In this document: one piece after another, positions 1,302 to 63,196 of the stretch
Numbering within the stretch: position 1 is the stretch's first letter
How the letters are laid out: every line of letters starts with the position of its first letter
From: an uncultured Microscillaceae bacterium
GTDB taxonomy: Bacteria; Bacteroidota; Bacteroidia; Cytophagales; Microscillaceae
Assembly: GCA_963922455.1 (NCBI GenBank)
Contig: CAWUIO010000006.1
Location: forward strand, 1,255-65,254
DNA: 64,000 nt
Reading direction: 5' to 3'
Made by a program: the position numbers and the translations under genes
The notes under the pieces: model-generated
Database searches by the model: none
The model's input: only the letters and a program-made list of their open reading frames with translations
What the model was told of the DNA's origin: nothing

Positions 1302-1432
1302 GGCTTAGGGATAGAGCGGCATGTTTGAGCTCGTGGGGGCCTGGTGGGGAAAGGCAGCGAGTAGCGAAAGCCCGACCCGCGCGGCTACTCACGTTAATTT
1401 GTCAATCTTTTTTGAGCGCGCGGGGAAGCCCC
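1302..1432 (+). repeat. Family-1 dispersed palindromic repeat, copy 1 (forward)
   Basis: GGCTTAGGGATAGAGCGGCATGTTTGAGCTCGTGGGGGCC...GGCAGCGAGTAGCGAAAGCCCGACCCGCGC, then a 35-nt unique segment, then GCGCGGGGAAGCCCC. Lies between convergent genes. Confidence 0.9.
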
Positions 1433-1437
1433 AATTT

Positions 1438-2289
1438 TTAATGACTAGATGAACGTATTTGTTCCTGTATGTACTGCTTGAGTATTTCTTGCAGCCTTTG
1501 GGTCTTAGGGCCAGGAGTTCCCTTTCCGATGCGGGTACTGTCCACCTGGACTACCGGAATAATCTCCGTACTCGTACCCGTTTTGAAAGCTTCGTCGGCC
1601 TGGGAAATCTCCTCTGGAGACAGCGGACGTTCTTCTACCGACATCATATCTTGAGCTAGGTCTAGAACCAACTGTCGGGTTATGCCCTTTAAGATATCGG
1701 TGTTGGGGGTGATGAGAGTATTTTCCCGGATGAGGAAGAAGTTACTTCGTGTACATTCGCTTACCTTTTGATCGTGGACAAAAAGCAGGTCTTGCGCTCC
1801 TACTTCGTTCATTTGGGGGCGCATCATATAGACGGGCAAGTAATGCGTGGTTTTGATTTCTGCTAGGGGGCGTACGTAGGCATAGCTCATCAATTTAAGC
1901 CCTTGGCGGTAATATTCCGGGGGTATCCTAGGAAGGTCTTCGCCTAAAATGAAAAAGTTAGGGGTGCCGGCAGAGCCTCCATCGGGGGTATAGCCCCCAC
2001 TCAATACCATCCTAAAGCCCATCTCTTGGCTTTTATCGGCTCTCAGATAGAGCATTTCGTCCAGGATCTCCCGGATTTCTTCTTCCTTGTACATCAAATA
2101 GAGCTGGGTAGCCCGGGCGGAACCTACGAGGCGTTGCCAGTGCTCTTCAAATTTGAAGGGTAGCCCCGAATAGGTGCGCAAATAATCAAATACGGCCCAA
2201 GCCCGAAGCAAGCCTAATTCGTTTAAACCAATCTTAGCCTCTTCTTGAGGTAGGAGCCGCCCATTGAGAAATACAAATTTTTGATCCAT
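1438..2289 (-). CDS. Class IV aminotransferase (branched-chain/D-amino-acid aminotransferase family)
   Basis: 283 aa. The N-terminus FLNGRLLPQEEAKIGLNELGLLRAWAVFDYLRTY and overall length fit fold-type IV PLP enzymes. Confidence 0.8.
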   Translation of the reverse strand: MDQKFVFLNGRLLPQEEAKIGLNELGLLRAWAVFDYLRTYSGLPFKFEEHWQRLVGSARATQLYLMYKEEEIREILDEMLYLRADKSQEMGFRMVLSGGYTPDGGSAGTPNFFILGEDLPRIPPEYYRQGLKLMSYAYVRPLAEIKTTHYLPVYMMRPQMNEVGAQDLLFVHDQKVSECTRSNFFLIRENTLITPNTDILKGITRQLVLDLAQDMMSVEERPLSPEEISQADEAFKTGTSTEIIPVVQVDSTRIGKGTPGPKTQRLQEILKQYIQEQIRSSSH

Positions 2290-2296
2290 GATGACA

Positions 2297-3559
2297 TTAA
2301 CGGTCTACCTCGCCTAATACCAAATCCAGGGAGCCTACGATGGCTACCAAATCGGCAATCATGACACCCCGGCTTATTTCGGGTAAAATGGATAAATTAT
2401 TAAAGCAGCAGGAGCGGGCTTTGCACCGGATGGGAACATCCGACCGGCCATCGCTACGAAAGTAAAAGCCCAGCTCTCCTTTGGGGTTTTCGGCCCGAGC
2501 ATAAAACTCCATGGCTTTGGGGCGTATTTTCTTAGGCACGAGGGCCTGGGGGTCAAAATCAGGGCTTCGTTGGTGTTCTTTGCCCAACTTCTCCAAGCAC
2601 TGCTCCATGATGCGCACCGACTCATAACATTCCCGCAAACGGACCCAGGTGCGGTCCCAACAGTCTCCGAGGGTGCCCATAGCTCCTTCGCCAATAGGTA
2701 CTTCAAATTCTAAATCTGGATAAACCGAGTAGCCCTCTACCCGGCGTAAGTCATAACGCAAGCCTGAGGCCCGTAGAATAGGGCCACTCACGCCATAGTT
2801 AATCGCCATCTCCAGAGGAATGGGGCCTACCTTGCCGGTTCTTTGAATAAAGATTTTGTTCTGTATGAGTAACTCTTCCGACTCTTTAAGTTTGGGCTTT
2901 AAATAAGCGCAAAATTCCTGACAACGTTCTTCAAAACCCAGGGGAAGGTCATAAAAAAGGCCCCCAACCCAGATATAATTATATAGCATACGGGCCCCAC
3001 ACAGCCATTCCAGCATACGCAGGATATGTTCCCGGTCCCGCATCATCCACAAGAAGGGGGTTACGGCCCCAATATCAACCCCGTAGGTGCCCATCGCTAC
3101 AAAGTGGGAGGCGATGCGGTTCATTTCGGCTACTAGTACCCGGATATATTCCACCCGGGGGGGCAGCTTTCCGTCCAGGCCCATCATTTTTTCTATCCCC
3201 ATGACGAAGGCGTGCTCGGAGTTCATGGCCGCCACATAGTCCATGCGGTCTACGTAAGGAATAATTTGATTAAAGGGAAGGGATTCGGCGTGCTTTTCAA
3301 AACAGCGATGGAGGTAGCCCAAATGAGGGACTACTTCTTGAATATATTCCCCATCGGTCACGACTTCTAAACGTAGTACACCATGGGTGGAGGGGTGTTG
3401 CGGACCGATATTGAGGATCATCTGCCCTTCTCCCAACTCCTCGAGCGAATATTTTAAGGGCTCAGAACGGGCCATATGCCCCGGCTCGAAGGTGTATTCA
3501 ATTTGCGGAGTTTGGTGTCTTTGATCAGGGTCTGGCCCTAGGTCAAGTGTGTTTGGCAT
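2297..3559 (-). CDS. nuoD: NADH-quinone oxidoreductase subunit D
   Basis: ILNIGPQHPSTHGVLRLE, the HRCFEK-type motif and the C-terminal ...IVGSLDLVLGEVDR are NuoD hallmarks. Start moved to the ATG at 3559 (MPNTLDLG), giving about 420 aa. The upstream 61 codons of the ORF track look non-coding. Confidence 0.9.
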   Translation of the reverse strand: MPNTLDLGPDPDQRHQTPQIEYTFEPGHMARSEPLKYSLEELGEGQMILNIGPQHPSTHGVLRLEVVTDGEYIQEVVPHLGYLHRCFEKHAESLPFNQIIPYVDRMDYVAAMNSEHAFVMGIEKMMGLDGKLPPRVEYIRVLVAEMNRIASHFVAMGTYGVDIGAVTPFLWMMRDREHILRMLEWLCGARMLYNYIWVGGLFYDLPLGFEERCQEFCAYLKPKLKESEELLIQNKIFIQRTGKVGPIPLEMAINYGVSGPILRASGLRYDLRRVEGYSVYPDLEFEVPIGEGAMGTLGDCWDRTWVRLRECYESVRIMEQCLEKLGKEHQRSPDFDPQALVPKKIRPKAMEFYARAENPKGELGFYFRSDGRSDVPIRCKARSCCFNNLSILPEISRGVMIADLVAIVGSLDLVLGEVDR

Positions 3560-3776
3560 GGGCAATGTTCGGCAAAAAGTGCTTAATGTTGGTATGACAA
3601 AGCCAAATATACATAGGTTTTTTGGGTTTGGAACAGGATCTGGTAAGCAAGTGGGCCGTTCTGGGATGGGACAATTCCCGATACATGCCTTGGGGTATTT
3701 ATGAATTGAACTTATTGCATAACAATTTGCCACCCAAAGCATTGGATATTATGTCAATCCTTTTTATTTTCGAGTA

Positions 3777-8694: not shown

Positions 8695-9282
8695 TCAAGA
8701 TAAATTGATCATTTTAACTAATTTCTTTTTGGCCCGGTTGAATTGCGATTTGGAAGTAGACTCGCTAATTCCCATAATTTCGGAGATTTCGCGGTGGTCA
8801 TAGCCTTCCAGCAAGTATAAGGTCAGTACCGTACGGAAGCCATCGGGCAAATTTTGTATCGCTTCGTGTACTTGTTCTACTTGCATTTGGATTCCGTCGT
8901 CGCTGCCTGGACCCTCGTTGGAGTCATCTCGGAAATCCATTTCATCTACGGAGACCAAGGGTAATCGTTTTTTCTTTACGTGATTAATCGCTCGATTGAT
9001 CACGATCCGTTTGAGCCAGGCTCCAAAAGTGGCTTCCCCTTTAAAGGTGTGCAGCTTTCGGAAGGCGTCAATAAAGGCCTCTTGCAGTACATCTTCGGCA
9101 TCGTCGGCATTGTTGGTAATCCGCATGCAGATATTGTACATCGCCCGGGAATACAGCTTATATATTTTATATTGCGCTTTCCGGTCTCCCTGTTTACAGG
9201 CCTCTACCAGCTCCTGGTTAATGTCTTTGTATGGTGTAGTCAAAACTCTAAACATTTTCGCGCGCTTTCCGGTGTTTCCCAA
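8695..9282 (-). CDS. RNA polymerase ECF-type sigma-70 factor
   Basis: Region 2 (DAEDVLQEAFIDAFRKL...FGAWLKRIVINRAINHVKK) and region 4 (LPDGFRTVLTLYLLEGYDHREISEIMGISESTSKSQ) are both present. Confidence 0.9.
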   Translation of the reverse strand: MGNTGKRAKMFRVLTTPYKDINQELVEACKQGDRKAQYKIYKLYSRAMYNICMRITNNADDAEDVLQEAFIDAFRKLHTFKGEATFGAWLKRIVINRAINHVKKKRLPLVSVDEMDFRDDSNEGPGSDDGIQMQVEQVHEAIQNLPDGFRTVLTLYLLEGYDHREISEIMGISESTSKSQFNRAKKKLVKMINLS

Positions 9283-9386: not shown

Positions 9387-9517
9387 GGGGCTGCCCCCGG
9401 CGATTTCCGAATCTTTCGGATAGCCAGGCCAGTGCCGCCGGGGTCGGGCTTTCGCTACTCGCTGCCTTTCCCCGCAAGGCCTACACGAGCTCAAACAGGC
9501 CGCTCTATCCCTCAGCC
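9387..9517 (-). repeat. Family-1 dispersed repeat, copy 2 (reverse)
   Basis: Same module as copy 1, but the stem arms are CCCCGGCG/CGCCGGGG instead of CCCGCGC/GCGCGGG. Lies in a divergent intergenic region. Confidence 0.9.
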
Positions 9518-9685
9518 GATGGGGAAGAGAGAGCAGAGAAGCGGGAGGAGAGATTTTGGAGGGAGGAGCCGGAAAGGGATTGCTAAGACCATGTGGGAAA
9601 ATAATACCCCACCGCCGCGAGGCCCTTATCTCGTCAATGCAAAAGATAGCTATATTTGCCTAGATAGTCTAGGATAAACCAAATC

Positions 9686-10290
9686 TTGAAGCAGCTCACC
9701 TACCTAAAACCCAATCTCTTAAAATGGGAGGAGGTTCCAGAACCAATCCTTACTAAGGAAAATGATGCCTCAGTAAGTCCCTTTCTGGTGGCTAGGTGTG
9801 ATATAGATGCTGCATTTTTGAGAAGTGACATCTTCAAAAGGATCTCCATAGGTAGGTTTCTGGGCTTAGTAGGTACATCCCTATCCGATTTTGCCCGAAA
9901 AGATTTTTTAAAGGGCCCTTTTCCCTTTGGCCACGAATGCGTGGCCGAAATTGTTGCCTTAGAAAAAGGCGTGAGAAATTTTAAACTCCGGCAAAAAGTA
10001 ATCATCCCCTTTCAAATTTCCTGCGGTGTATGCCCTATTTGTGAATCGGGACTAAGCAGCCCATGCCAAGAAACGGGCAGCTTCAATATGTATAGCGGCA
10101 TTGGAAAACACGTGTCCCAAGGGGGCACCCTCTCCGATATTTTGAAAGTACCCTACGCCAATAAGATGCTCATTCCTGCCCCCATGACCTGAACCTTCAG
10201 GGCTTAGCCAGTGCCAGTGATAATTTACCCGATGCTTGGTACCGGGTGGCCCCTCATCTACTCCATTCTACAAATAAGTCAGTACTAATA
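9686..10290 (+). pseudogene. Zinc-type alcohol dehydrogenase family gene, frameshifted and 3'-truncated
   Basis: GroES-like N-terminal domain with GHECVAEI and a CGVCPIC zinc motif. The frame ends at 10192 and the protein continues in another frame (LASASDNLPDAWYRVAPHL), then stops. No Rossmann domain follows. Confidence 0.6.
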
Positions 10291-10322: not shown

Positions 10323-10433
10323 GTTTCAATCCTTGTTTTGGTGGAATAGGCTCGTGAATTTCGGACAAGCAAGCAATACTCGTCATCAGGATGGAGTTTC
10401 AATCCTTGTTTTGGTGGAATAGGCTCGTGAATT
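10323..10433. CRISPR. Orphan CRISPR-like mini-array (2 identical 38-nt repeats, 1 spacer of 35 nt)
   Basis: GTTTCAATCCTTGTTTTGGTGGAATAGGCTCGTGAATT occurs at 10323-10360 and 10396-10433. The 5' GTTTCAATCC is typical of CRISPR repeats. No cas genes are in the window. Confidence 0.4.
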
Positions 10434-10578
10434 CGGGCTCTCCCTCGATGGCTACTTCTTCGCTACCTATGACACTACTTGTAATTTTCTGATTTTCAGC
10501 ACTTTAAAAAAACACGAATTCAAGATTAATTACCAGTTTGAAATGTCATTGCAAAGACTTGTGCGCCTGCGCATACCC

Positions 10579-10716
10579 CTTTAGGGATAGAGCGGCCTGT
10601 TTGAGCTCGTGGGGGCTTGTGCGTCATGGCAGCGAGTAGCGATAGCCCGGCCCGCGCAGGCACATAGGTTCACGGGATACCCCTTGATCTTGCGCGGGCA
10701 AGCCCCTCTTTTTATT
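10579..10716 (+). repeat. Family-1 dispersed repeat, copy 3 (forward)
   Basis: TTAGGGATAGAGCGGCCTGTTTGAGCTCGTGGGGG...GCCCGGCCCGCGC, then a 34-nt unique segment, then GCGCGGGCAAGCCCC. Confidence 0.85.
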
Positions 10717-12299: not shown

Positions 12300-12410
12300 G
12301 GGGCTTCCCCCGCTCCCCCCAAAGCGGGGGAGCGGGGTCGGGCTCTCGCTACTCGCTGCCTTTCCCCCCAGGCCCCTACGAGCTCAAACAGGCCGCTCCA
12401 TCCCTAAGCC
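12300..12410 (-). repeat. Family-1 dispersed repeat, copy 4 (reverse), short-cassette variant
   Basis: The conserved module is intact. The unique segment is replaced by a perfect 12-bp hairpin, CCCCGCTCCCCC-caaagc-GGGGGAGCGGGG. Confidence 0.9.
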
Positions 12411-13424: not shown

Positions 13425-13555
13425 GGCTTAGGGATGGAACGGCATGTTTGAGCTCGTGTAGGCCCGGCGGGGAAAGGCAGCGAGTAGTGAGAGCCCGACC
13501 CGCGCGGACAGATTTTTTCTATGAAAAACTTTTGGGAATCGCGCGGGGAAGCCCC
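13425..13555 (+). repeat. Family-1 dispersed repeat, copy 5 (forward)
   Basis: GGCTTAGGGATGGAACGGCATGTTTGAGCTCGTG...GCCCGACCCGCGC, then a 35-nt unique segment, then GCGCGGGGAAGCCCC. Confidence 0.9.
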
Positions 13556-15778: not shown

Positions 15779-15905
15779 ATACAAGCCATTCAGGTTCTGG
15801 CTGGTTTGCGGTAAAGTAGCCTATCGGCTAGCCGTTCTGATAACTGTTATCTATTGAAAAGTTCGGGATGCCCCTTTGGAAAGTACACACATCAAGGGGA
15901 AACCT

Positions 15906-16036
15906 GGAGCTTGCCCGCGCCAGAAAGTTAAGTTTTCTAACAAACATAGAGCGGCGGGCGCGGGCCGGGCTCTCGCTACTCGCCTGCCCCCCGCTAGGCC
16001 CTTTCGGGCTCAAACAGGCCGCTCCATCCCTAAGCC
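15906..16036 (-). repeat. Family-1 dispersed repeat, copy 6 (reverse)
   Basis: GAGCTTGCCCGCGC, then a 37-nt unique segment, then GCGCGGGCCGGGCTCTCGCTACTCGCCTGCC...CTCAAACAGGCCGCTCCATCCCTAAGCC. Confidence 0.9.
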
Positions 16037-16181
16037 TAAGAAGAAGAGAGAGCAGTGAACAGAGATTTGGGTTATGGAGCCGGGAACCCCATCAGTACAA
16101 AATTAGCTTCGCTGGGCCCTCCTTGCTCGCTGCTAAACCAAGGGGCACTGAAAGGCTTGCTCGTTCACCCGCTAATTCGCG

Positions 16182-16297
16182 GCAAGCTAGCCTCAGGGCT
16201 GAAAGCGGGGACGCTTTCGGTAAAAGAAAAGGTCCAAGGACCGCGGCGCTTATCCTTGAACCAGATCAATTTTCTACATGCTTGGACTATATGGGGG
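16182..16297 (+). repeat. Family-2 117-bp hairpin-rich repeat, left copy
   Basis: GCAAGCTAGCCTCAGGGCTGAAAGCGGGGACGCTTTCGGTAAAAGAAAAGGTCCAAGGACCGCGGCG...CTTGGACTATATGGGGG. A near-identical direct copy lies at 20948-21064. Confidence 0.9.
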
Positions 16298-16686
16298 CTA
16301 AGGACTTAAAGAAAATCTATCAAGCGGATAGAAAAGAACAAGCAGAGGCAGCTTTACTAGAAGTAGAAGAAACCTGGGGAGCCAAATACCCCCATATCTT
16401 CAAGAGCTGGACGGAAAACTGGGAAACCTTATCTATTTTTTTTGATTTTCCCTCCGAGATCCGAAAAATGATTTATACCACCAATGTGATTGAAAATGTC
16501 AATCGGGTCATTAGAAAGTATACCAAAGGAAAAACTATATTTCCCAGTGATCAGGCGGTCACCAAATCGGTATATCTAGCTTTACAGCGTCTGAGTGAAA
16601 AATGGACGATGCCGCTAAGAAATTGGCAAAAAATTATTGCCCAGTTGGCTATACTCTATCCGGATAAAATTAAACTTGATATTTAA
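16291..16686 (+). mobile_element. IS256-family transposase, C-terminal third only (remnant)
   Basis: WGAKYPHIFKSWTENWETLSIFFDFPSEIRKMIYTTNVIENVNRVIRKYTK...KWTMPLRNWQKIIAQLAILY matches the conserved C-terminus of IS256/mutator-type transposases. The DDE core is absent. Confidence 0.8.
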
Positions 16687-16752
16687 CCATGTTTTTACAG
16701 ACTTTATGAAACATTATCCTGCTCATCGAACTGCTAGCTCTAGATTGAAAAA

Positions 16753-16770
16753 GCCCCGCATTCGCGAGGC
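16753..16770. terminator. Putative bidirectional terminator hairpin
   Basis: AAAAA-GCCCCGC-attc-GCGAGGC-TTTTATTTT, lying between the convergent IS remnant and the last immunity gene. The stem has one mismatch. Confidence 0.4.
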
Positions 16771-16781
16771 TTTTATTTTAA

Positions 16782-17201
16782 TTAATAGGTGTTTTTATCT
16801 AATTCAGAGTCAATTTTTGCTTCTAAAAATTCAACAGTAGCTACTTCCTTCTTATCCGGCTTTGGTCTGATTTTAATATCAAATACTTGTCCCATTGCCA
16901 TATGAATTTCACTTGTATACTTTACTCCTCCCATTTTGTATTTCACGTATGCCAATCGAAACTCTTCTGTTCTACCAAACAATTGCTTCTTTGGAATAAT
17001 CCCATATTGTTCAGGGTACATCTCTGTAACAAGGTCATTTTTATATTCTATCCTCTTTATTAGAGTCAAATACTTTAGCTGCTCCTTTACTAATAAAGAT
17101 TGATGTTCTGGTAGCTGCGAAATCAAATATTCAAAAACAGATTTTTCCAGATAAGTTAATTCACCTTTTTGAGGGTCCTTTATTCTCTTTTTCCAAAACA
17201 T
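16782..17201 (-). CDS. Putative immunity protein I4 (cognate to orphan tip T4)
   Basis: ATG lies 4 nt after the T4 stop. Small, AT-rich, with no signal peptide. The call is positional. Confidence 0.5.
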   Translation of the reverse strand: MFWKKRIKDPQKGELTYLEKSVFEYLISQLPEHQSLLVKEQLKYLTLIKRIEYKNDLVTEMYPEQYGIIPKKQLFGRTEEFRLAYVKYKMGGVKYTSEIHMAMGQVFDIKIRPKPDKKEVATVEFLEAKIDSELDKNTY

Positions 17202-17205
17202 AGGC

Positions 17206-17541
17206 CTACCTTCCAAACATGTTATAATTTAAATCGCCTCCTGGTACAAGTCGAAGCTTAATTTCACAAGGCAAGCGCCTGTATCTAAATGGATCATGAC
17301 CAGCATGTCTCAACGTGTTTGTCTTAATAACATTGAGCCTATTATTAACCATCCAGTTTGGCAAATTGTACTTTCTTTGAGCCGCCTGTGTAATCCATCT
17401 ATGTGAGTATTCTACTCTGACAGGGAATTTGGTTCCGTAAAATTTATGTGGAGTTTTTAGCGTAATGTTTCCAATCAATCCACCACCACCGTTTGCAGCT
17501 TTGAATTGAGAGAATGTCTTACCCCCCCTAGCGGCTACACT
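17206..17541 (-). CDS. Orphan toxin C-terminal module T4 (no own start codon)
   Basis: The frame opens right after the I3 stop and reads SVAARGGKTFSQFKAANGGGGLIGNITLK.... It begins with the shared junction GCCGCTAGGGGGG. Confidence 0.5.
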   Translation of the reverse strand, partial: SVAARGGKTFSQFKAANGGGGLIGNITLKTPHKFYGTKFPVRVEYSHRWITQAAQRKYNLPNWMVNNRLNVIKTNTLRHAGHDPFRYRRLPCEIKLRLVPGGDLNYNMFGR

Positions 17542-17546
17542 CTATT

Positions 17547-17852
17547 CTATTCCATACATTTTTTATACTTCAAAATCTCATCTTTCAAATTACCCTTACA
17601 TATTTCTATTTTGACCCCATTAATTTTATCAAACCCATGAGATTTTGCATCAAAATATAAAGCCACATTTTCAAAGAAGTATTCAAAACTTTCAAAATTT
17701 TTCTGTTCAAAGAGGTCTACTTCTTTGCGTTTGTTTGCATCATCTATGTACCAGTCTGGTCCTGATACACTAAAACCATGATTTACATTATCGTTTAACA
17801 AGGCTTGCTCTAAAGCTGGTATATACTGGTGAAAAAACTCTTTTTCATTCAT
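17547..17852 (-). CDS. Putative immunity protein I3
   Basis: 101 aa. ATG lies 11 nt after the T3 stop. Acidic, cytoplasmic-looking protein. Confidence 0.5.
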   Translation of the reverse strand: MNEKEFFHQYIPALEQALLNDNVNHGFSVSGPDWYIDDANKRKEVDLFEQKNFESFEYFFENVALYFDAKSHGFDKINGVKIEICKGNLKDEILKYKKCME

Positions 17853-17863
17853 AACCGATCAGT

Positions 17864-18145
17864 TTAAAATCTATCCCAAAAACTTTTGTCATTCCATCCT
17901 TTTTCCCACGGTCTGTGTCTATGAAGATTATTTCCTCTACCTCTATGATAGTGAAGGAGTTTTTTGTTTTGTAAAGGCTTAGGAATAGTCATAGAATTAC
18001 TTGCTTTAGAGGCTTGTCCTAATTTATGAAAATCTAACCTTGGTTTTGCTCCATAACCAGAACCTTTAGAAATTGTAAAACCATTTATCTTTCCGCCACT
18101 GGCTCGTAACCATTTGAATTGAGGTACCCACTTAGCGGCGTTATT
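17864..18145 (-). CDS. Orphan toxin C-terminal module T3 (absent from the ORF track because it has no start codon)
   Basis: My own translation is NNAAKWVPQFKWLRASGGKINGF...KKLLHYHRGRGNNLHRHRPWEKGWNDKSFWDRF*. It has a degenerate junction GCCGCTAAGTGGG and shares the HYHxGRG motif with T2. Confidence 0.45.
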   Translation of the reverse strand, partial: NNAAKWVPQFKWLRASGGKINGFTISKGSGYGAKPRLDFHKLGQASKASNSMTIPKPLQNKKLLHYHRGRGNNLHRHRPWEKGWNDKSFWDRF

Positions 18146-18668
18146 TTATCTCCTCTAGCAATAACAAGTTATTTTCATAGTCATCAATAGATAAATTATA
18201 CTTAGGGCTAGTAGATAGCTCTCCGGTTATTAAACATTCAATTTTCTTTGTACTCTGATCGAAATAGAAGAAACCTGAAGACAAAAGCAACTCATCGTTA
18301 CAATAAAACTCGATTTGCACCAAATACTTTGCTGCATTGAATAGATTGATTCCTTTCCTCTTCCAGCCATATATCTTGATTTCCGATATTGCTTTATTCT
18401 CAAATTTTGAAATGGGTTTTTCAGAATATCTGTTCTTTTCAAATTTTAAATCTAAATTTCCTTCACCATAAAAATGAGGAATATCATCTGTGGTAATTTC
18501 TACTGTCTGATCATCCGAGAAATATATCCTTAGCTCTTCCCCAAATAGTGTGCTTTCGTTTTCATCATCTAAAATCTGACCATCCACACTAACAGCTAAT
18601 ATTAATCTTTGAAGTAATGGTTTTAGCTGTTTTGAGATTTTATCTATAATCTTTTCCATAAGCTCCAC
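18141..18668 (-). CDS. Putative immunity protein I2
   Basis: 175 aa. ATG lies 5 nt after the T2 stop. Confidence 0.5.
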   Translation of the reverse strand: MELMEKIIDKISKQLKPLLQRLILAVSVDGQILDDENESTLFGEELRIYFSDDQTVEITTDDIPHFYGEGNLDLKFEKNRYSEKPISKFENKAISEIKIYGWKRKGINLFNAAKYLVQIEFYCNDELLLSSGFFYFDQSTKKIECLITGELSTSPKYNLSIDDYENNLLLLEEIK

Positions 18669-18673
18669 TTAAT

Positions 18674-19000
18674 TTAATAAGGTCCTAACCAACCGTTTCT
18701 TAATTGAGACCCATTAAGAATCTTGTTCCCTGAGCCGAATTGCATATGGTGGGCTCCAGTTTTCCCTCGACCCCAGTGATAATGCCAGAATTTCTGATTG
18801 ATAGGTGTTTGCCCTGGTTTTCTTAATACCCAATTATGTCGATCAATCGCACCTTGGAATTTACCATATTTAAACCCTATTACTCTGTGCCCAGACATGC
18901 CTGGTGCCTGAACTTTCGACATTACTGAAAATTGAAACTTCTTTCCAACATTGAAATTACCGCCCCATTTTGGCAATCTCACCCCCCTAGCGGTTTCTCT
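18674..19000 (-). CDS. Orphan toxin C-terminal module T2
   Basis: The frame opens after an in-frame stop just downstream of the I1 stop and reads RETARGVRLPKWGGNFNVGKK...FWHYHWGRGKTGAHHMQFGSG.... Junction is ACCGCTAGGGGGG. Confidence 0.5.
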   Translation of the reverse strand, partial: RETARGVRLPKWGGNFNVGKKFQFSVMSKVQAPGMSGHRVIGFKYGKFQGAIDRHNWVLRKPGQTPINQKFWHYHWGRGKTGAHHMQFGSGNKILNGSQLRNGWLGPY

Positions 19001-19007
19001 CTACACT

Positions 19008-19394
19008 CTATTCAACTTTATAAATTTTACCCGAAAACTTTAGCTTATTTTCATCAATCATTTTATTTAAGAATTTTTCAACCAAATCTTCATTTGTCCC
19101 AGCAAGTTTATCTTTTAAGAAAAGATAAAAACTCCAAGAAGTAAACCCTATCTCACCATCTTCAAACTCAATGTCTACTTCAAAATTTTTAAATTGGAAA
19201 CCACAACCATTACCATGAAATGCATAACCAGTAACAGACGAACCTTTCAAATCATAATTTCTGGCAGGAATTGTTCCGGAATTTTTCATCTTCAAATAAT
19301 CACCATCTCCAAAATTATTTTTTAGAAAAAGAATTATCTGGTTAATTAAAAAGCAATAATCTTTAAAAAAAACATCTATTCCATTCATAATCAT
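19008..19394 (-). CDS. Putative immunity protein I1
   Basis: 128 aa. Its ATG overlaps the T1 stop (TAATG). Confidence 0.5.
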   Translation of the reverse strand: MIMNGIDVFFKDYCFLINQIILFLKNNFGDGDYLKMKNSGTIPARNYDLKGSSVTGYAFHGNGCGFQFKNFEVDIEFEDGEIGFTSWSFYLFLKDKLAGTNEDLVEKFLNKMIDENKLKFSGKIYKVE

Positions 19395-19732
19395 TATCTT
19401 AAAAGCATTTGAAGCATTCTACCATCAACCTTAAAGGAACTCTGAGCCGCTCTTTGAGCGGCCATCTGTAGTTCAAAAACGTTAGCATAGTTTCCAGGAG
19501 ATGACAAATAATTTACTGGGACTTTTTGACCAAGACGCATCGCTGCATGAGCTCTGTGATGGCCATTAATGATATAATCTTTGCCTCCATGTCTAAAGAC
19601 ATCAATTGGTTTTTGGATACCTGTAGACTTTGCAGATTTCATGATTTCAGCAACACTTCTTGTACTAACTTTCCAAGTCCTACCTACCTCTGTTCTTATC
19701 AATGAACTTGGATTCACCCCCCTAGCGGCAAC
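19394..19732 (-). CDS. Orphan toxin C-terminal module T1, ParB-like nuclease domain
   Basis: Continues in the same frame directly after the I0 stop (TAA-GTT-GCC-GCT-AGG-GGG). PIDVFRHGGKDYIINGHHRAHAAMRLGQKVPV matches the ParB/Srx DGHHR core. Confidence 0.55.
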   Translation of the reverse strand, partial: VAARGVNPSSLIRTEVGRTWKVSTRSVAEIMKSAKSTGIQKPIDVFRHGGKDYIINGHHRAHAAMRLGQKVPVNYLSSPGNYANVFELQMAAQRAAQSSFKVDGRMLQMLLR

Positions 19733-20188: not shown

Positions 20189-20190
20189 AA

Positions 20191-20805: not shown

Positions 20806-20947
20806 TTAGCGACAGCCTCCCCACTGTCGGCCGAAGGGAAGGGAGCTTGGGGCATATCATCTATCCTTACAATTTTCTCTTTAGGTTTACTTCCTCCATT
20901 CATCCCATTTCCCAAAGACTTTTTGGCTCGGGATGACCTAGGTCGCA

Positions 20948-21093: not shown

Positions 21094-21222
21094 GGCTTAG
21101 GGATAGAGCCTCTGTTTGAGCCCGCCGGGGGCATGCGGGTGAGCCGGCGAGTGGCGAAAGCCCGGCCCGCGCAGGCACTTGTGGACTCCCATTTCGCCTC
21201 TCCCATTGCGCGGGCAAGCCCC
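21094..21222 (+). repeat. Family-1 dispersed repeat, copy 7 (forward), mosaic of subfamilies A and B
   Basis: GGCTTAGGGATAGAGCCTCTGTTTGAGCCCGCCGGGGGCATGCGGGTGAGCCGGCGAGTGGCGAAAGCCCGGCCCGCGC, then a 35-nt unique segment, then GCGCGGGCAAGCCCC. Confidence 0.85.
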
Positions 21223-23795: not shown

Positions 23796-23924
23796 GGGGC
23801 TTCCCCGCGCTATTCCCTAAAGTGCTCATAACAAAAAAACTGCCGGCGCGGGTCGGGCTGTCACTACTCGCTGCCTCTACCCTCTGGCCCTAAGAGCTCA
23901 AACAGGCCGTTCCATCCCTAAGCC
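23796..23924 (-). repeat. Family-1 dispersed repeat, copy 8 (reverse)
   Basis: GGGGCTTCCCCGCGC, then a 35-nt unique segment, then GCGCGGGTCGGGCTGTCACTACTCGCTGCC...CCATCCCTAAGCC. Confidence 0.9.
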
Positions 23925-29730: not shown

Positions 29731-29860
29731 GGGGCTTCCCCGCGCCAAAGGAGGCACTACCCATTTGCCCTTCGGTAGCCGCGCGGGTCGGGCTTTCGCT
29801 ACTCGCTGCCTTTCCCCGCTAGGCCTGCACGAGCTCAAACAGGCCGCTCTATCCCTAAGC
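29731..29860 (-). repeat. Family-1 dispersed repeat, copy 9 (reverse)
   Basis: GGGGCTTCCCCGCGC, then a 35-nt unique segment, then GCGCGGGTCGGGCTTTCGCTACTCGCTGCCTTTCCCC...CTCTATCCCTAAGC. Confidence 0.9.
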
Positions 29861-30081
29861 TGATGAAAAGAGAGCAGAGACTTAAAACCAGGAGGCGATA
29901 AGCGGGAGTTGGGATGCATTGTCATCTCCCAGGGTATTGCTCGTGTTTGTTAGATACTGCTCTTCGGAGACCAATCTACTAGAAAAGACCGTCTGTTAAA
30001 CCAGAGAATAAACCCATTCCATAATTCTTTGGCCATGTCTAAGCGAAGTGCTATTTTGCTAGCCATTAAATTTTACCCGAT

Positions 30082-31788: not shown

Positions 31789-31928
31789 GGCATAGGGACG
31801 GAAGCCTGTAAGGCCGAGACCGCCGCTGGTTTGCGCGTGAGCCGGCTCGGGGCTTGCCCGACGGCCCGACCCCCTCCCCGGCACTTATTTTGAAGTTGCT
31901 TATACTTTTGGGGGAGGGGGGATGCCCC
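31789..31928 (+). repeat. Family-1 dispersed repeat, copy 10 (forward), subfamily B
   Basis: GGCATAGGGACGGAAGCC...GAGACCGCCGCTGG...GAGCCGGCTCGG...GCCCGA. The stem is CCCCCTCCCC/GGGGAGGGGG around a 31-nt unique segment, with tail GATGCCCC. Confidence 0.75.
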
Positions 31929-38779: not shown

Positions 38780-38909
38780 GGGGCTGCCCCCGGCGATGGT
38801 CCTCTACTGCCCAACAAGTTCTCAAGTACCGCCGGGGTCGGGCTTTCGCGACTCGCCGGCCAGCGCACAAACCAGCGGCGGGCTCAAACAAACGCTCTAT
38901 CCCTCAGCC
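38780..38909 (-). repeat. Family-1 dispersed repeat, copy 11 (reverse)
   Basis: GGGGCTGCCCCCGGCG, then a unique segment of about 35 nt, then CGCCGGGGTCGGGCTTTCGCGACTCGCC...CTCTATCCCTCAGCC. Same stem variant as copy 2. Confidence 0.85.
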
Positions 38910-39146: not shown

Positions 39147-39277
39147 AGCTTAGGGATAGAGCGGCATGTTTGAGCTCGTGCAGGCCTGGTGGGGAAAGGC
39201 AGCGAGTAGCGAAAGCCCGACCCGCGCGGCAACAGATGGGCCCATGGCTAGTACCTGCCTTAGCGCGGGGAAGCCCC
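39147..39277 (+). repeat. Family-1 dispersed repeat, copy 12 (forward)
   Basis: AGCTTAGGGATAGAGCGGCATGTTTGAGCTCGTGCAGGCC...GCCCGACCCGCGC, then a 35-nt unique segment, then GCGCGGGGAAGCCCC. Faces copy 11. Confidence 0.9.
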
Positions 39278-44875: not shown

Positions 44876-46708
44876 ATGGAAATTTTAGTGATTAATTGCG
44901 GCAGTAGCTCCCTTAAAAGTGAACTCATCCGTACCAGTGACGGAAAAAGGCTATTAAGCCTCAAAATAGAGCGCATCAACGATGCCCAACCCCTGGTACA
45001 GTTTTCGGATGAAGACGAACCCCTCCCTTGCTCGGTGAGTGGGCACGAACCAGTATTACGCTTGGCGCTCCCTAAACTTGTAGAAAAAATCAAACCCTAT
45101 GCCTTAGAAGGAGTAGGCCACCGGGTCGTGCACGGGGGAGAAGAATTTGACGAAGCCGTCATCTTAGACGAACACGTAGAGAAAAAAATCGAGGAGTTTT
45201 GCTCCCTTGCGCCCTTACACAACCCGCCAGCTTTGAAGGCCATCCGTCTGGCCCGGGAGTTTTTTCCCGCTATTCCCCACATTGCCGTATTTGACACGGC
45301 ATTTCACGCTACCCTCCCCAAACGGTCCCGGGAATATGCCCTCCCCCTCGCCATACGAAACAAACACAATATTCGGCGCTATGGCTTTCACGGTACTAGC
45401 CACCAATTTGTCGCCGAAAGGGCCTCAGAGTTTTTAGAAAGCGATATGCGTAACCTTCGAATCATCACGTGCCACTTAGGCAACGGGGCAAGTGTATGTG
45501 CTGTGGAATATGGCCGCTCGGTGGAGACCAGCATGGGTATGAGCCCCCTAGAAGGTTTGGTAATGGGTACCCGAAGTGGCGACCTAGACCCCGGTATCCT
45601 CCTATATCTTATGGAAAAGGAAAATTTAGACTTTGAAGGCTTAAATGACCTACTCAATGAACAAAGTGGCCTCCAGGGTATCACGGGTACGACCAACGAT
45701 ATGCGCGATATCGTAGAACAAGCCGCCAAAGGAGACGAAAGGAGCCGCTTAGCCATACATATCTTTGCCCACCGCTTACGAAAATACATTGGGGCCTATG
45801 CCGCCGTTATGGGGGGAGTAGACGCTTTGGTATTTACGGGCGGGATCGGCGAAAATAGCGCCATCATCCGGCACCGGGCCTCCCAAAGGTTAGATTTTAT
45901 GGGGGCAGTCATAGATGAAGACAAAAACCGGGATTTGGACTTTGTGGATAACCAAAAGGTGGAAGACATCTCGGCCCCCAATAGCCGTTGTAAGATCTTG
46001 GTCGTGGCTACCGATGAACAATACGCCATCACCCGGCAATCCTATCACTTAATACAAGAAAAATACAAAGTCAACACCCTACCGGCAATTCCGATTGCCG
46101 TATCGGCCCGGCATATTCACTTAAGTCAGGAAACGGTAGAGGAACTCTTTGGGGAAGGGTATCAACTTACGCCTTACAAGCCTTTATCCCAACCTGGGCA
46201 ATTTGCTTGCGAAGAAACCCTCAGCCTCATTGGGCCCAAAAATAAAATCGAGCGGGTGCGTATCTTAGGCCCGGCCCGGAGCAAAAACCAGGTAGAGATT
46301 TCGCGTACCGATGAGTTTTTCCTAGGCATCGACGCGCCAGTCCGCGAATCGGGCAAGGTAGAAAACACGCCGGGCATTACCTTGCTTGCCAACAACGGTA
46401 ATAAGGTAGATCTCAAAGAAGGGGTGATCTGCGCGTGGCGCCACATCCACATGACTCCCGAAGATGCCGAACTCTTCCAAGTAAAAGACCGGGATATCGT
46501 AGAAGTCCGCATCGAGAATGATGAACGGAGCCTTACTTTTGGGAATGTGCTCATCCGGGTATCGAGCAAATACAAGCTCGAGATGCACATCGATACCGAC
46601 GAGGCCAATGCCGCCGAGCTCAACCAAGGGGCAGAAGGCACCCTGATGGCTGCCGATTTGGATGGACATCTTACCCGCCGGGCTACCAAGTACGATCAAG
46701 CAAAATAA
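44876..46708 (+). CDS. ackA: Acetate kinase fused to a PduL-type phosphate acyltransferase
   Basis: N-terminal MEILVINCGSSSLK...GFHGTSH...GGIGEN is AckA. The C-terminal 200 aa, HIHLSQETVEELFGEGYQLTPYKPLSQPGQFACEETL...RHIHMTPEDAELF...LEMHIDTDEANAA, is PduL with both PF06130-type repeats. Confidence 0.85.
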   Translation: MEILVINCGSSSLKSELIRTSDGKRLLSLKIERINDAQPLVQFSDEDEPLPCSVSGHEPVLRLALPKLVEKIKPYALEGVGHRVVHGGEEFDEAVILDEHVEKKIEEFCSLAPLHNPPALKAIRLAREFFPAIPHIAVFDTAFHATLPKRSREYALPLAIRNKHNIRRYGFHGTSHQFVAERASEFLESDMRNLRIITCHLGNGASVCAVEYGRSVETSMGMSPLEGLVMGTRSGDLDPGILLYLMEKENLDFEGLNDLLNEQSGLQGITGTTNDMRDIVEQAAKGDERSRLAIHIFAHRLRKYIGAYAAVMGGVDALVFTGGIGENSAIIRHRASQRLDFMGAVIDEDKNRDLDFVDNQKVEDISAPNSRCKILVVATDEQYAITRQSYHLIQEKYKVNTLPAIPIAVSARHIHLSQETVEELFGEGYQLTPYKPLSQPGQFACEETLSLIGPKNKIERVRILGPARSKNQVEISRTDEFFLGIDAPVRESGKVENTPGITLLANNGNKVDLKEGVICAWRHIHMTPEDAELFQVKDRDIVEVRIENDERSLTFGNVLIRVSSKYKLEMHIDTDEANAAELNQGAEGTLMAADLDGHLTRRATKYDQAK

Positions 46709-46722: not shown

Positions 46723-46852
46723 GGGGCTTGCCCGCGCTAGAGGGGCTTGTATCCAAATTATACATACTACCCAGCGCGGGCCGGGCTTTCGCTACTCGCC
46801 TGCCTCCCGCCGGGCCCTCACGGGCTCAAACAGGCCGCTCTATCCCTAAGCC
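46723..46852 (-). repeat. Family-1 dispersed repeat, copy 13 (reverse)
   Basis: GGGGCTTGCCCGCGC, then a 36-nt unique segment (it starts with a duplicate of TAGAGGGGCTTG), then GCGCGGGCCGGGCTTTCGCTACTCGCC...CTCTATCCCTAAGCC. Confidence 0.9.
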
Positions 46853-48492: not shown

Positions 48493-48624
48493 GGCTTAGG
48501 GATGCCACTCGAAGAGCGGAGACCGCCGCTGGATGCGCGGGGGCCGGCTCCGGCTTGGCTGGCAAGCCCGACCGGCCGGCACTGAGTACCCTAGGTATAC
48601 GTACGCTCTAGCCGGTAAGCCCCA
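48493..48624 (+). repeat. Family-1 dispersed repeat, copy 14 (forward), subfamily B
   Basis: GGCTTAGGGATGCCACTCGAAGAGCGGAGACCGCCGCTGGATGCGCGGGGGCCGGCTCCGG...AAGCCCG. Stem is ACCGGC/GCCGGT around a unique segment of about 30 nt, with tail AAGCCCC. Confidence 0.8.
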
Positions 48625-57061: not shown

Positions 57062-57195
57062 GGGGCTTGCCCGCGCCAGATAAAGTGATTTCCCATAAGT
57101 AAACAGATTGCCTGCGCGGGCCGGGCTAGGCTGCCGAGCCGGCTCACCCGCATCCAGCGGCGGTCTCGGCCCATTCGGGCGCCTATCCCTAAGCC
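57062..57195 (-). repeat. Family-1 dispersed repeat, copy 15 (reverse), subfamily B
   Basis: GGGGCTTGCCCGCGC, then a 37-nt unique segment, then GCGCGGGCCGGGCTAGGCTGCCGAGCCGGCTCACCCGCATCCAGCGGCGGTCTCGG...CCTATCCCTAAGCC. Confidence 0.85.
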
Positions 57196-57426
57196 AAACA
57201 GGAAGAGAGAAGAGAAAGTAGGAACTAGCGACCCATTGCTTGCTTCACCCTCCCTTTCCCCTCTCTCTTCTCTCTTCTCTATTCTCTGCTCTCAAGAGCC
57301 TACCCATGACATTATTTGTAAAACGCTTTATTAGGTATTTCACGGGAAAAACGTGTCTACTCTTAGGTTTTGATCGGCATCCTTAGCATATTTAACCTTT
57401 CTCTTATGTATACAAGCTGCTTAAGG

Positions 57427-61742: not shown

Positions 61743-61988
61743 GTGGAATTTAGTCTGTGCATAGCCAAGCGTAATCCATTAAAAAACTCAAGCAGCCCGG
61801 GCCGGACTTTCCTTAGCCACCTTCCCTCGCCCCAAGCAGCGTGGGGATCACGTTGGCCTCAAGATGAGATCTATCTCTGAGCCAGATAGTATATAAAGTC
61901 TAGCCTTACGTACGTCATGCCCCCCCTTATTGCCTTGAAACTTCATTCTTTGCCCCACAGTAGGAAAGAATAAAAAGCTAAACCCTGT

Positions 61989-62432
61989 ATGAAAAAAGAA
62001 CTGCGTAATAATTCGGGCTTTATGTATTATACCTTAGAGTACAAACCCGAACAAGAATTAATTATTTCAGCTTGGTATGGCGAAGATCTCAGCCTAAAAG
62101 AAATTCAAGAAGCCTGCACTTTAGCGCTTGACTTAATACAGGCGCATCAAATCCCACTTATTTTGAATGATAATAGCCAACTCACAGGAACCTGGGACAA
62201 CGCAAATGATTGGATTAATGACTATTGGATGCCCGAGGCTATCAAAGGAGGCTTAAAACGCTTTGCCCACGTTTTGTCACCAGAGTTTTATGCGCAATTA
62301 TCGGCCGAACTCATGGAGGATGACAATCAGAGCATCGCCGCCGATTTTGAACTTGTCATCTTTGAGGAGGTACAGGAAGCTGAGAATTGGCTGCTAAGTT
62401 ATCAAGGAAAAGCGGCAGAAAAGCTCTCTTAG
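61989..62432 (+). CDS. Hypothetical protein, paralog A of a tandem pair
   Basis: 147 aa. Clearly homologous to 62490-62927 (YYTLE(Y/F)KPEQELI, GTWDNA, GLKRFAHV). Confidence 0.6.
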   Translation: MKKELRNNSGFMYYTLEYKPEQELIISAWYGEDLSLKEIQEACTLALDLIQAHQIPLILNDNSQLTGTWDNANDWINDYWMPEAIKGGLKRFAHVLSPEFYAQLSAELMEDDNQSIAADFELVIFEEVQEAENWLLSYQGKAAEKLS

Positions 62433-62489
62433 ACCATATTAACCTTCTTAGAAAAAAAAACCCAAAATTCCTTCTCAAACTTAGCAAGT

Positions 62490-62927
62490 ATGACAAAAGA
62501 ACTCTATAAGCAAACGGGCTCAGTGTATTATACCTTGGAGTTTAAACCCGAACAAGAACTAATTGCTGCCGCTTGGTATGGCGAGCACCTGAGTGCCGAT
62601 GAAATCAAAAAAGCCTGTATGCTTTCCTTGGATCTTATCAGAAGTCAACAAATCAGCCTCTTCATCAACGACAATCGCAAGCTAGAAGGGACTTGGGACA
62701 ATGCAGAGGAATGGATTACGACCTACTGGATACCCGAAGCCCAAAAAGCAGGGCTTAAACGCTTTGCCCACGTGATTGCCCAAGAATTTTACGCCAAGCT
62801 TACCGCCGAATTGATTGATGACGATAATCCATCTTTTTCCCAAGATTATCAATTTCGGATTTTTGAAGATTACGAGAAAGCCCTGTCTTGGCTGGAGCGG
62901 TATCACGAGGAGAAGCTCACTGAATAA
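62490..62927 (+). CDS. Hypothetical protein, paralog B of a tandem pair
   Basis: 145 aa. See paralog A. Confidence 0.6.
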   Translation: MTKELYKQTGSVYYTLEFKPEQELIAAAWYGEHLSADEIKKACMLSLDLIRSQQISLFINDNRKLEGTWDNAEEWITTYWIPEAQKAGLKRFAHVIAQEFYAKLTAELIDDDNPSFSQDYQFRIFEDYEKALSWLERYHEEKLTE

Positions 62928-63064
62928 AATTTTAATTCTTTGCCCCCATATACAGTATAGGTATGGAGAAGAATTGGAAACGATAAAATTAGCCCCCAAG
63001 CCTGTTTAAACAATCGTTTTCAACTCAAAGCCCCGGTCCTTTCTAAACGCGCCCTTCTTTCTTT

Positions 63065-63196
63065 GGCTTAGGGATGGAGCGGCATGTTTGAGCTCGTAGG
63101 GGCCTGTGGGGAAAGGCAGCGAGTAGCGAGAGCCCGGCCCGCGCTGGCACTATTTGTACTAAGCTAATACAAAAGGTACGGGCGCGGGCAAGCCCC
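63065..63196 (+). repeat. Family-1 dispersed repeat, copy 16 (forward)
   Basis: GGCTTAGGGATGGAGCGGCATGTTTGAGCTCGTAGGGGCC...GCCCGGCCCGCGC, then a 37-nt unique segment, then GCGCGGGCAAGCCCC. Confidence 0.9.

Follow-up and report, generated by a model that had tools for sequence, protein, structure and literature searches.

A dispersed three-way-junction repeat of an uncultured Microscillaceae bacterium is a hyper-amplified, long-P3 variant of the Flavo-1 family

Locus and repeat family

The stretch of DNA analysed here, referred to below as the window, comprises 64 000 nucleotides from an uncultured Microscillaceae bacterium (GenBank assembly GCA_963922455.1, contig CAWUIO010000006.1, positions 1255–65 254 of the forward strand; all positions below are counted from the first base of the window). 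Its genes include those for UvrA, MnmE, DinB, a cyclomaltodextrinase, a DUF4175 protein and a TonB receptor of the SusC type with a CarboxypepD_reg domain, and its best protein relatives belong to Microscillaceae and to Bernardetia-type Cytophagales, with identities of 62–65% for DinB and 76–80% for DtxR. The SusC-type receptor, DUF4175 and these relatives rule out a cyanobacterium, to which the GC content and a CRISPR match might have pointed. Exact protein matches place the same DNA in the ENA metagenome assembly ERZ23491892. Dispersed between these genes is a repeat of 110–140 bp, the subject of this report, which had been noticed in a preliminary description of the sequence. It belongs to the Flavo-1 family, as a hyper-amplified variant in which one hairpin of a three-way junction, P3, is long.

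A 23-nt core pattern matched the window ten times and a gapped version of it 13 times, with no match expected by chance in either case. An iterated nhmmer profile retrieved 14 strong copies, with E values of 1e-24 to 1e-42, and three divergent copies (starting at 31789, 48493 and 61759) with E values of 1e-6 to 1e-9. The family is therefore real and far beyond chance. The 17 copies, eight on the plus strand and nine on the minus strand, amount to about one per 3.8 kb and are designated c01–c17 (Table 1). The preliminary description had counted at least 16 intergenic copies in both orientations; its copy numbering agrees with ours, and its limits of 1302 and 63196 are the position at which copy 1 starts and that of the CC tail in copy 17. 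All 17 copies are intergenic between credible genes, and the open reading frames (ORFs) that overlap them are spurious extensions. A small ORF within the element itself was considered and rejected, as the start codon is not conserved and the hairpin lengths are not multiples of three.

About half of the window copies carry a pyrimidine-rich 5′ extension composed of TCCCGGT-like heptad repeats, a CT-rich tract or both. The pattern of the CT-rich tract, TCTCTNCTCTCTCTTC, has 11 matches where 0.4 would be expected. At c01, a Logan contig of a close strain stops just before the tract, which suggests that the extension belongs to the repeated unit.

Structure and covariation

One strand of each copy folds as a three-way junction of helices P1, P2 and P3. 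P1 consists of five base pairs that join the two ends of the element (5′ GGCTT with 3′ AAGCC) and is followed by a single unpaired A; within the window it covaries from GGCTT/AAGCC to GGCTG/CAGCC and GGCAT/ATGCC. P2 is a long and irregular arm: on a GGG:CCC base it carries an internal loop of tandem G-A, a bulge of invariant sequence (UGUUUGA), one bulged C and, distally, a hairpin that varies. P2 and P3 are connected by a GR linker; P3 is a CCC...GGG hairpin of free length, and a CC(A/T)AA tail lies directly 3′ of the 3′ strand of P1. The layout and the stem variants given in the preliminary description (CCCGCGC/GCGCGGG; CCCCGGCG/CGCCGGGG in copies 2 and 11; CCCCCTCCCC/GGGGAGGGGG in copy 10; CCGGC/GCCGG in copy 14) are all present. 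The single covarying stem that it proposed is P3, which does covary; the fold, however, has three helices rather than one. The 5′ GGCTT/3′ AAGCC closure, the pyrimidine-rich 5′ extension and the Bacteroidota-wide core described below were absent from that account.

The alignment on which covariation was evaluated comprised 48 sequences trimmed of their hairpin interiors: 13 window copies and 35 sequences of other Bacteroidota. Standard pairs occupy 91% of the alignment cells, and double changes occur at all five P1 pairs. At pair 19:54, 31 sequences have G-C and 16 have A-U; at pair 34:45, 41 have U-A and seven C-G, without exception; and pair 16:57 covaries (UA in 17, GC in seven, AU in five), while the GGG:CCC base and U15:A58 are present in all 48. 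The covariation score of 0.333 compares with 0.126 for shuffled alignments (none of 500 as high) and with at most 0.098 for controls in which the pairing partners were slid. Compensatory change in the stem had earlier been read as selection on a single-stranded fold, and these values bear that reading out. Since G-U pairs (60) far exceed A-C mismatches (11), the fold belongs to the given strand.

Minimum free energy (MFE) folds of the divergent copies c10, c14 and c15 give the three-way junction independently. Stability z-scores of single sequences range from +0.9 to −2.2 on the sense strand, are similar on the antisense strand and carry no information on structure; the structural evidence is covariation and not thermodynamic stability. 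An outer extension of P1 (UUU:AAA over a CC bulge) was rejected because it pairs in just about 45% of the sequences. The type of the outer shell and that of the P2 hairpin reassort among copies: c02 and c11 share their P1 and P3 variants and differ in the P2 hairpin. Such reassortment points to recombination or gene conversion among copies.

Relationship to Flavo-1

Flavo-1 (RF01705; Weinberg et al., 2010, Genome Biol 11:R31, PMC2864571) was reported with 239 instances listed as a probable RNA that is not cis-regulatory, and no function was assigned to it. The preliminary description knew of no described element with this sequence; that statement does not stand, as the junction shell is shared with Rfam Flavo-1 and the exact subclass is present in the 2010 seed alignment. 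The kinship is clearest at locus L034, one of the loci from other Bacteroidota introduced below, where the head-to-head partner of a main-class copy is a bona fide Rfam Flavo-1 that scores 48.8 bits against RF01705 (gathering threshold, 42 bits). This partner shares with the main class P1 (GCGUU/AACGC), the unpaired A, the GAAAGC step, the short P3 and the CCAAA tail. Its base helix is GCG:CGC instead of GGG:CCC, and the P2 interior is otherwise the sole difference. In the 2010 seed alignment (PMC2864571, supplementary file 151) three sequences have the window-type interior UUUGUUUGAGCUC...GCGAGU...GAUAGCCCGAC; the rows with GUUUGAGCUC, GCGAGU and GA(U/A)AGCCCGAC and the same flanks are NZ_AAMP01000001.1/1197511, NZ_AANA01000001.1/1303039 and NZ_AAXX01000001.1/700803. 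Conversely, a model built from the window class (R1) matches canonical Flavo-1 copies with 25 bits and an E value of about 1e-4.

The published P2 architecture of Flavo-1 (a 3-bp base helix, a bulged A, a U:A step, a purine–purine loop and a GC helix) is present in the window class, in which tandem GA/GA takes the place of the GAA/GGA of Flavo-1. The shared shell comprises a GCGUU-type 5′ strand of P1, the A, a 3-bp base helix that covaries from GGG:CCC to GCG:CGC or CNG:CNG, A/G and U:A steps and purine–purine internal loops; in aligned instances the P3 hairpin, the 3′ strand of P1 and the CCAAA tail are shared as well. Both groups are multi-copy elements of Bacteroidota with no constant gene neighbour and no function attached to them. 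The Rfam consensus, in contrast, represents the GAAGCGGAAAUCC...GAUUGNAGCGGAAAGC class, and the window copies differ from published Flavo-1 in a P3 of about 49 nt, in the 5′ extension found in half of them and in their density.

The published alignment and consensus structure end at GCCCGACC, so that P3, the P1 closure and the tail lie outside the published model. In a scan of the whole window no copy reached the Flavo-1 gathering threshold, and the Rfam 15 model gave no match at E ≤ 10 on 6.8 kb or on 166–176-nt stretches that hold copies. No other RNA family in Rfam matched the copies, either at gathering thresholds or at E ≤ 10. Resemblances to hammerhead, twister, hatchet, ykkC, 5S, RNase P and tRNA-like folds were dropped after inspection by eye, and strings of the core sequence returned no match in the literature. 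A third P2 class is formed by c10, c14 and c15 together with copies at loci L027 and L033. The best description of the family is a common junction shell whose P2 interiors, of at least three classes, are interchangeable.

Distribution

The core pattern, when scanned against GTDB species representatives, was found at at least 36 loci from Flavobacteriales, Cytophagales, Chitinophagales and Sphingobacteriales. Among the matches listed, the carriers include Lutibacter, Algibacter, Mesonia, Weeksella, Jejuia, Neotamlana, Chitinophaga, Ohtaekwangia and others, as well as metagenome-assembled genomes of Cyclobacteriaceae, Sphingobacteriaceae and Cytophagaceae. The core is near-invariant and reads GCGUuAGGGAUnGArCnnnUGUUUGAGCyC[hairpin]rGCGAGUnGyGAnAGCCCGrCCC, followed by P3, the 3′ strand of P1 and CCAAA. 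No copies were found in 624 kb of metagenome loci anchored on MnmE (34–58% identical to that of the window), within 20-kb stretches around the nearest relatives with long contigs, or among 2.9 million viral contigs and 72 556 plasmids. One lineage thus carries about a copy per 3.8 kb and its nearest relatives none.

At the c05 site the contigs of two related organisms, one 98% identical in DNA and the other with a leucine-rich repeat (LRR) protein that is 62% identical, both represented by short Logan contigs only, end inside a copy at this same site. Either this is a hot spot, or the copy was in place before the two diverged. In closer relatives, Logan contigs stop within the repeat or before reaching it. 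The orthologue of c05 in L113 has the 5′ extension, which the window copy lacks.

A change of synteny was noted at about 12609. Both a 98%-identical strain, alignable from 12609 on, and a more distant relative (L112 and L113) have a different, tetratricopeptide repeat (TPR)-like upstream gene fused to the start of the LRR gene, and the window sequence upstream of 12609 is unrelated to theirs. The breakpoint, about 195 nt from c04, may represent a rearrangement near a repeat.

Gene context and pairing

The orientation of the window copies relative to genes is arbitrary. In seven of the 17 the 3′ tail lies no more than 30 nt from the stop codon of a convergent gene, five copies occupy convergent gaps and six are antisense to both neighbours; no promoter motif is found at a fixed distance from the window copies. 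All-against-all BLAST of the ORFs that flank the 36 listed loci revealed no recurrent protein family beside the element, and the downstream genes at these loci are functionally unrelated housekeeping genes. A riboswitch or cis-regulatory leader, which would have a fixed place in the 5′-untranslated region (UTR) of functionally related genes, was rejected in view of the heterogeneous downstream genes, the occurrence of every orientation and the copies in convergent gaps of the window. For Flavobacterium psychrophilum, the source of the only transcriptome statement found, Flavo-1 matches are reported in sense or antisense orientation relative to transcribed regions, with many of them not transcribed (PMC9723704).

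Inverted pairs recur. Head-to-head pairs are present at five of the at least 36 loci (Table 1), against about 0.2 expected by chance, as estimated from the background density, and in the window c11 and c12 form such a pair, with the 5′ ends of P1 237 nt apart. Tail-to-tail pairs occur at L006 and L017. The head-to-head pairs at these five loci unite a main-class copy with one of another class; the partner is a canonical Flavo-1 in L034 and L003 and a member of the third class in L033 and L027. This arrangement resembles the pairing of Y and Z repetitive extragenic palindromes (REPs) in the bacterial interspersed mosaic elements (BIMEs) of E. coli.

The P3 arm

The segment that the preliminary description called copy-specific is the distal part of P3. 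Across taxa P3 measures 9–60 nt; in other Bacteroidota it is mostly a hairpin of 9–20 nt (CCC-GCA-GGG or similar), with a long hairpin in a few. In the window it is 48–51 nt in 12 of the 13 standard copies, with loops of 34–37 nt, most of which begin with a GGCAC-like start. The narrow length range noted earlier thus applies to these 12 copies and not to c04, with its P3 of 31 nt, or to the decayed c16. The enclosed segments had also been called unrelated, and for the most part they are: mean pairwise identity is 48% for the loops compared with 83% for the cores, although clear homology is seen in three of 78 loop pairs (c12/c09, 71%; c05/c08, 74%; c05/c02). These related pairs indicate that copies were inherited together with their loops, which then diverged several times faster than the cores. 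Thus c01 and c12 are 97% identical over 86 nt and have unrelated loops, and c12 and c09 combine cores that are 96% identical with loops that are 71% identical.

The loops have no match beyond chance elsewhere in the window, and their sole match among 50 697 phage records is 22 nt long with an E value of 0.8. They are no closer to their own flanks than to the flanks of other copies, which speaks against the earlier suggestion that the element captures flanking DNA. In c13 (46725–46790) the P3 loop holds CAAGCCCCTCTA, an exact 12-nt duplicate of the copy's own 3′ P1 strand together with the tail, so that the same 12-mer stands on either side of GCGCGGG. This is a local duplication or recombination scar, and loops can therefore change by means other than point mutation.

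Table 1. Repeat copies of the window, their 5′ extensions and head-to-head pairs at other loci. Coordinates of pairs refer to the respective locus.
Feature	Position	Strand	Structure	Context
c01	1302..1432	+	P1 GGCTT/AAGCC, P2 arm, P3 49 nt, CC tail	Tail end 7 nt from stop codon of convergent gene 1438..2289(−); TCCCGGT repeats immediately upstream, 1280–1297
c02	9387..9517	−	P1 GGCTG/CAGCC; P3 CCCCGGCG/CGCCGGGG; both compensatory variants	106 nt upstream of extracytoplasmic function (ECF) sigma gene 8695..9282(−), co-oriented; CT-rich 5′ extension 9524–9553
c03	10578..10706	+	P1 5′ side degenerate (CCTTT)	145 nt from two-repeat CRISPR (clustered regularly interspaced short palindromic repeats) remnant
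c04	12300..12410	−	Short P3, 31 nt (CCCCGCTCCCCC/GGGGGAGCGGGG)	
c05	13425..13555	+		Between LRR gene and dtxR
c06	15906..16036	−	G-T wobble in P1 (GGCTT/AAGCT)	Downstream of mnmE; head-to-head with c07 across low-GC island
c07	21094..21222	+	P2 distal hairpin type GCCGG...CCGGC	
c08	23796..23924	−	Loop homologous to c05 loop	5′ end 21 nt from stop codon of co-oriented ATP-binding cassette (ABC) ATPase gene
c09	29731..29861	−	Loop 71% identical to c12 loop	Divergent intergenic region
c10	31789..31928	+	Divergent class; P1 GGCAT/ATGCC; P3 CCCCCTCCCC/GGGGAGGGGG; MFE fold a three-way junction	
c11	38780..38909	−	P1 GGCTG/CAGCC	3′ end 28 nt from stop codon of convergent gene
c12	39147..39277	+	TCCCGG plus CT-rich 5′ extension	90 nt upstream of dinB
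c13	46723..46852	−		3′ end 16 nt from stop codon of acetate kinase/PTAC gene
c14	48493..48623	+	Divergent class; P3 CCGGC/GCCGG	Exactly spans the interval separating two convergent stop codons, at distances of 2 nt and 7 nt
c15	57062..57195	−	Divergent class, P2 interior differs; MFE fold a three-way junction	3′ end 12 nt from stop codon of histidine kinase gene
c16	61759..61883	−	Decayed copy, nhmmer E 2e-6	3′ end 16 nt from stop codon
c17	63065..63196	+		Tail 19 nt from stop codon of convergent gene 63214..63948(−)
5′ extension	1257–1298			
5′ extension	9521–9560			
5′ extension	16037–16075			
5′ extension	29862–29900			
5′ extension	38910–38940			
5′ extension	39100–39146			
5′ extension	57196–57230			
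Pair, L034	3256–3467		Head-to-head, spacing 19 nt	
Pair, L003	6130–6346		Head-to-head, spacing 21 nt	
Pair, L033	5665–5902		Head-to-head, spacing 6 nt	
Pair, L027	3005–3337		Head-to-head, spacing 117 nt	
Pair, L009	2322–2693		Head-to-head, spacing 175 nt	

Other features of the window

Two identical CRISPR repeats of 37–38 nt (Rfam CRISPR-DR7, 41.8 bits each) with a single spacer of about 35 nt between them lie at 10323–10433 on the minus strand, beside fragments of an alcohol dehydrogenase gene (9686–10192). The window contains no cas genes, and two ENA scaffolds that map onto it, L123 and L121, end and begin near this remnant, which looks like a degenerate or orphan mini-array.

A low-GC island (15868–21039; 36% GC compared with about 45%) contains about ten small ORFs on the minus strand, most of them without a Pfam match; the matches obtained are one DUF6896 and one weak ParB_N. 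The island is bracketed by direct repeats of 102 nt (16172–16273 and 20938–21039; 91% identical), the first of which is located within an ORF whose residues 144–247 match the C-terminal end of an IS256-family Transposase_mut domain. The island sits between the head-to-head copies c06 and c07, as though it had entered the spacer that separates two inverted copies. A tRNA-Arg(ACG) gene is found at 21468–21542.

A single ORF of 610 residues (44876–46708, plus strand) combines a complete acetate kinase domain with a PTAC (phosphate propanoyltransferase) domain, a fusion not previously known to us. Between c16 and c17 are two adjacent paralogous genes on the plus strand (61989–62432 and 62490–62927; 147 and 145 residues) with a common stretch of 130 nt at 75% identity.

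Interpretation

The interpretation that we favour, to which we give about an even chance, is that the element is a non-autonomous structured repeat of the REP/BIME type or like the REP doublets forming hairpins known as REPINs. Of the three possibilities raised in the preliminary description this is the best fit: copies occur in any orientation, at the 3′ ends of genes and in inverted pairs, and their amplification is lineage-specific. The element is non-coding and chromosomal, folds as a junction on one strand, is amplified in some lineages and absent from near relatives, lies in promoter-free gaps and forms inverted pairs. REPs, BIMEs and REPINs, which are associated with REP-associated tyrosine transposases (RAYTs; TnpA-REP, of the Y1 HUH type), are similarly extragenic, high-copy and non-coding, with a strand-specific single-stranded fold; they lie beside gene 3′ ends, form inverted head-to-head pairs that can mix two classes, and are restricted to chromosomes, patchy between lineages and long-lived.

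As a repeat of this kind the element would encode nothing and would be copied within the chromosome by a factor supplied in trans, which would read the folded junction and the P2 arm on single-stranded nucleic acid. Copies would land beside stop codons or in other promoter-free gaps, often as inverted head-to-head pairs, and would then persist for long. The junction shell and P2 would be kept by selection for recognisability and probably also by gene conversion between copies, whereas the distal part of P3, contacting nothing, would drift to sequence saturation; a founder with a P3 of about 49 nt, inherited by this lineage, would account for the combination of constant length and unrelated sequence. 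An enzyme of the RAYT type (Y1/HUH) is the obvious candidate for the putative partner. In copies that are transcribed through, the RNA should fold alike and may affect mRNA ends, which would be a side effect and not the reason for the element.

Several observations weigh against this interpretation. REPs are imperfect palindromes of 20–40 nt with a 5′ GT[AG]G foot, whereas the element is a junction of 90–140 nt without a GTAG foot. Known REPs are short, species-specific and co-evolve with their RAYT. The element, unlike REPs, has about 40 invariant unpaired nucleotides that are conserved across bacterial orders, a pattern more usual in functional RNAs. Translation of the window and of 118 loci in six frames, about 1 Mb altogether, revealed no Y1 motif (HuH...YxxxNP), and neither a RAYT nor another candidate enzyme was found there; the REPs published for the Bacteroidetes RAYT subclasses 2.4 and 2.6 are ordinary short hairpins and not junctions (Quentin et al., 2018). 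Nothing in the way of an empty site, a target duplication or, P1 apart, a terminal inverted repeat was seen that would demonstrate transposition. By our reading of the ORFs, about 22 of 31 copies at the other listed Bacteroidota loci are co-oriented with a downstream gene that starts 40–220 nt away, which hints at a role as RNA. Finally, the loop length of 34–37 nt is less variable than we would expect of neutral indels at substitution saturation; the constancy of length despite saturated sequence is mildly unexplained.

One possible lead towards a RAYT comes from Flavobacterium johnsoniae, where an 'atypical' REP, CTTTGCGGGCACGGATTGCAAATCCGCGCAATCG, is recorded beside a subclass-2.6 RAYT (PMC6006769, Table S1, row FjohA01 ABQ05095.1). 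Its reverse complement, CGATTGCGCGGA...AATCCGTG, resembles by eye the 5′ half of the Flavo-1 copies of F. johnsoniae (CCGAUUGCAGCGGAAAUCCGU). This one short similarity may link Flavo-1 to a RAYT.

The main rival is a functional structured RNA, a possibility that we regard as tentative and that does not exclude a REP-like mode of spread. The copies would be transcribed alone or within neighbouring UTRs, and the junction would bind a conserved Bacteroidota protein or a ligand; they would act as small RNAs (sRNAs) or as cis elements that stabilize, process or insulate mRNA ends, and would spread by duplication. The preservation across orders of unpaired nucleotides, tandem G-A pairs, a bulged C and a conserved G-U is in keeping with such a role, as are the predominant co-orientation outside the window and the classification of Flavo-1 as a likely RNA by Weinberg et al. 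Selection on each copy is suggested by cores that remain at 83% identity while the loops saturate, and the c05 site still holds a copy in an organism with an adjacent LRR protein of just 62% identity. A functional RNA is, on the other hand, difficult to reconcile with the six window copies that are antisense to both neighbours, with the want of a fixed-distance promoter motif in the window or with downstream genes that are functionally unrelated. The mixture of sense, antisense and untranscribed Flavo-1 matches in F. psychrophilum argues in the same direction, and the absence of copies from the nearest relatives of so densely populated a genome is odd for a housekeeping RNA.

The other three readings each fail a defining test. 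A classical MITE (miniature inverted-repeat transposable element) mobilized by a DDE transposase, for example by the IS256-family element beside c06, and possibly capturing flanking DNA at its centre, is improbable. The size of 110–140 bp, the high copy number and the intergenic location would suit a MITE, and the Transposase_mut fragment does adjoin c06, which together with c07 brackets the island. The sole terminal inverted repeat is, however, the freely covarying 5-bp P1, where at least 10 bp would be required; the flanks show no target-site duplication, and the proposed outer extension pairs in fewer than half of the sequences. Moreover, the transposase is just a C-terminal fragment, the loops are unlike the flanks, and the excess of G-U pairs with the conserved unpaired nucleotides indicates a single-stranded fold and not duplex ends. 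The RNA-folding MITEs Correia/NEMIS, ERIC, BOX and RUP are also small dispersed intergenic repeats that are co-transcribed with their neighbours, fold as RNA and have modular variable parts, but each of these is genus-specific, with target duplications and terminal inverted repeats that are long, whereas the element has five covarying end pairs and a phylum-wide core.

Very improbable, in our judgement, is a guide-type scaffold in which the junction would offer each copy's own P3 loop (34–37 nt) as a guide or address to an RNA- or DNA-guided protein, as omega-RNA, bridge RNA and CRISPR RNA (crRNA) do. The scaffolds of TnpB/IscB omega-RNA, IS110 bridge RNA and crRNA do combine a constant structure with a variable segment of about 35 nt, loop length in the window is tight while loop sequence is mostly unrelated, cores that are 96–97% identical carry unrelated or much more divergent loops (c01/c12 and c12/c09), and a CRISPR remnant is nearby. 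In most of the family, however, the same arm is a hairpin of 9–20 nt with no room for a guide, so that the variable arm is dispensable; in known scaffolds the variable part lies at an end or in paired internal loops and is not enclosed in a hairpin. For the guide-like loop suggested earlier no targets were found in the window, in its own flanks or among the phage records; none of the TnpB, IscB or IS110-type genes proposed to accompany the copies occurs in the window, nor does a Cas gene, and the related loop pairs reflect ordinary descent with drift. There is an equally slight prospect that the P3 arm is a display scaffold for a hypervariable cassette constrained to 34–37 nt, rewritten independently of the core and serving as a base-pairing address or guide; if true, this would explain near-identical cores with unrelated or far more divergent loops as well as the over-tight loop length.

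Least probable of all are recombination sites of folded single-stranded DNA, like attC in integrons, on which a tyrosine recombinase would act. The strand-specific fold, the paired ends, the variable terminal arm, the length of 90–140 nt and a Flavo-1 seed sequence from NC_002967.9 (which we take to be Treponema denticola, an integron carrier) might speak for this reading, and against it stand the lack of RYYYAAC/GTTRRRY boxes, the free sequence of P1 (GCGTT, GCAGC, GGCTT and others), the occurrence of both orientations among housekeeping genes without a one-orientation cassette array, and the lack of an integrase in the window.

Significance

Flavo-1 is among the most abundant orphan entries in Rfam, and the published motif represents only the P2 arm of a larger three-way junction with a covarying P1 closure and a conserved tail. 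As the current Rfam model misses the window class, description of the full junction provides the basis for a better annotation model. Taken together, the inverted mixed-class pairs, the shared shell and the lineage-specific amplification point to a REPIN-like replicator rather than to a conventional sRNA. If its partner is not a RAYT, the element would represent a new kind of association between host and element in Bacteroidota.

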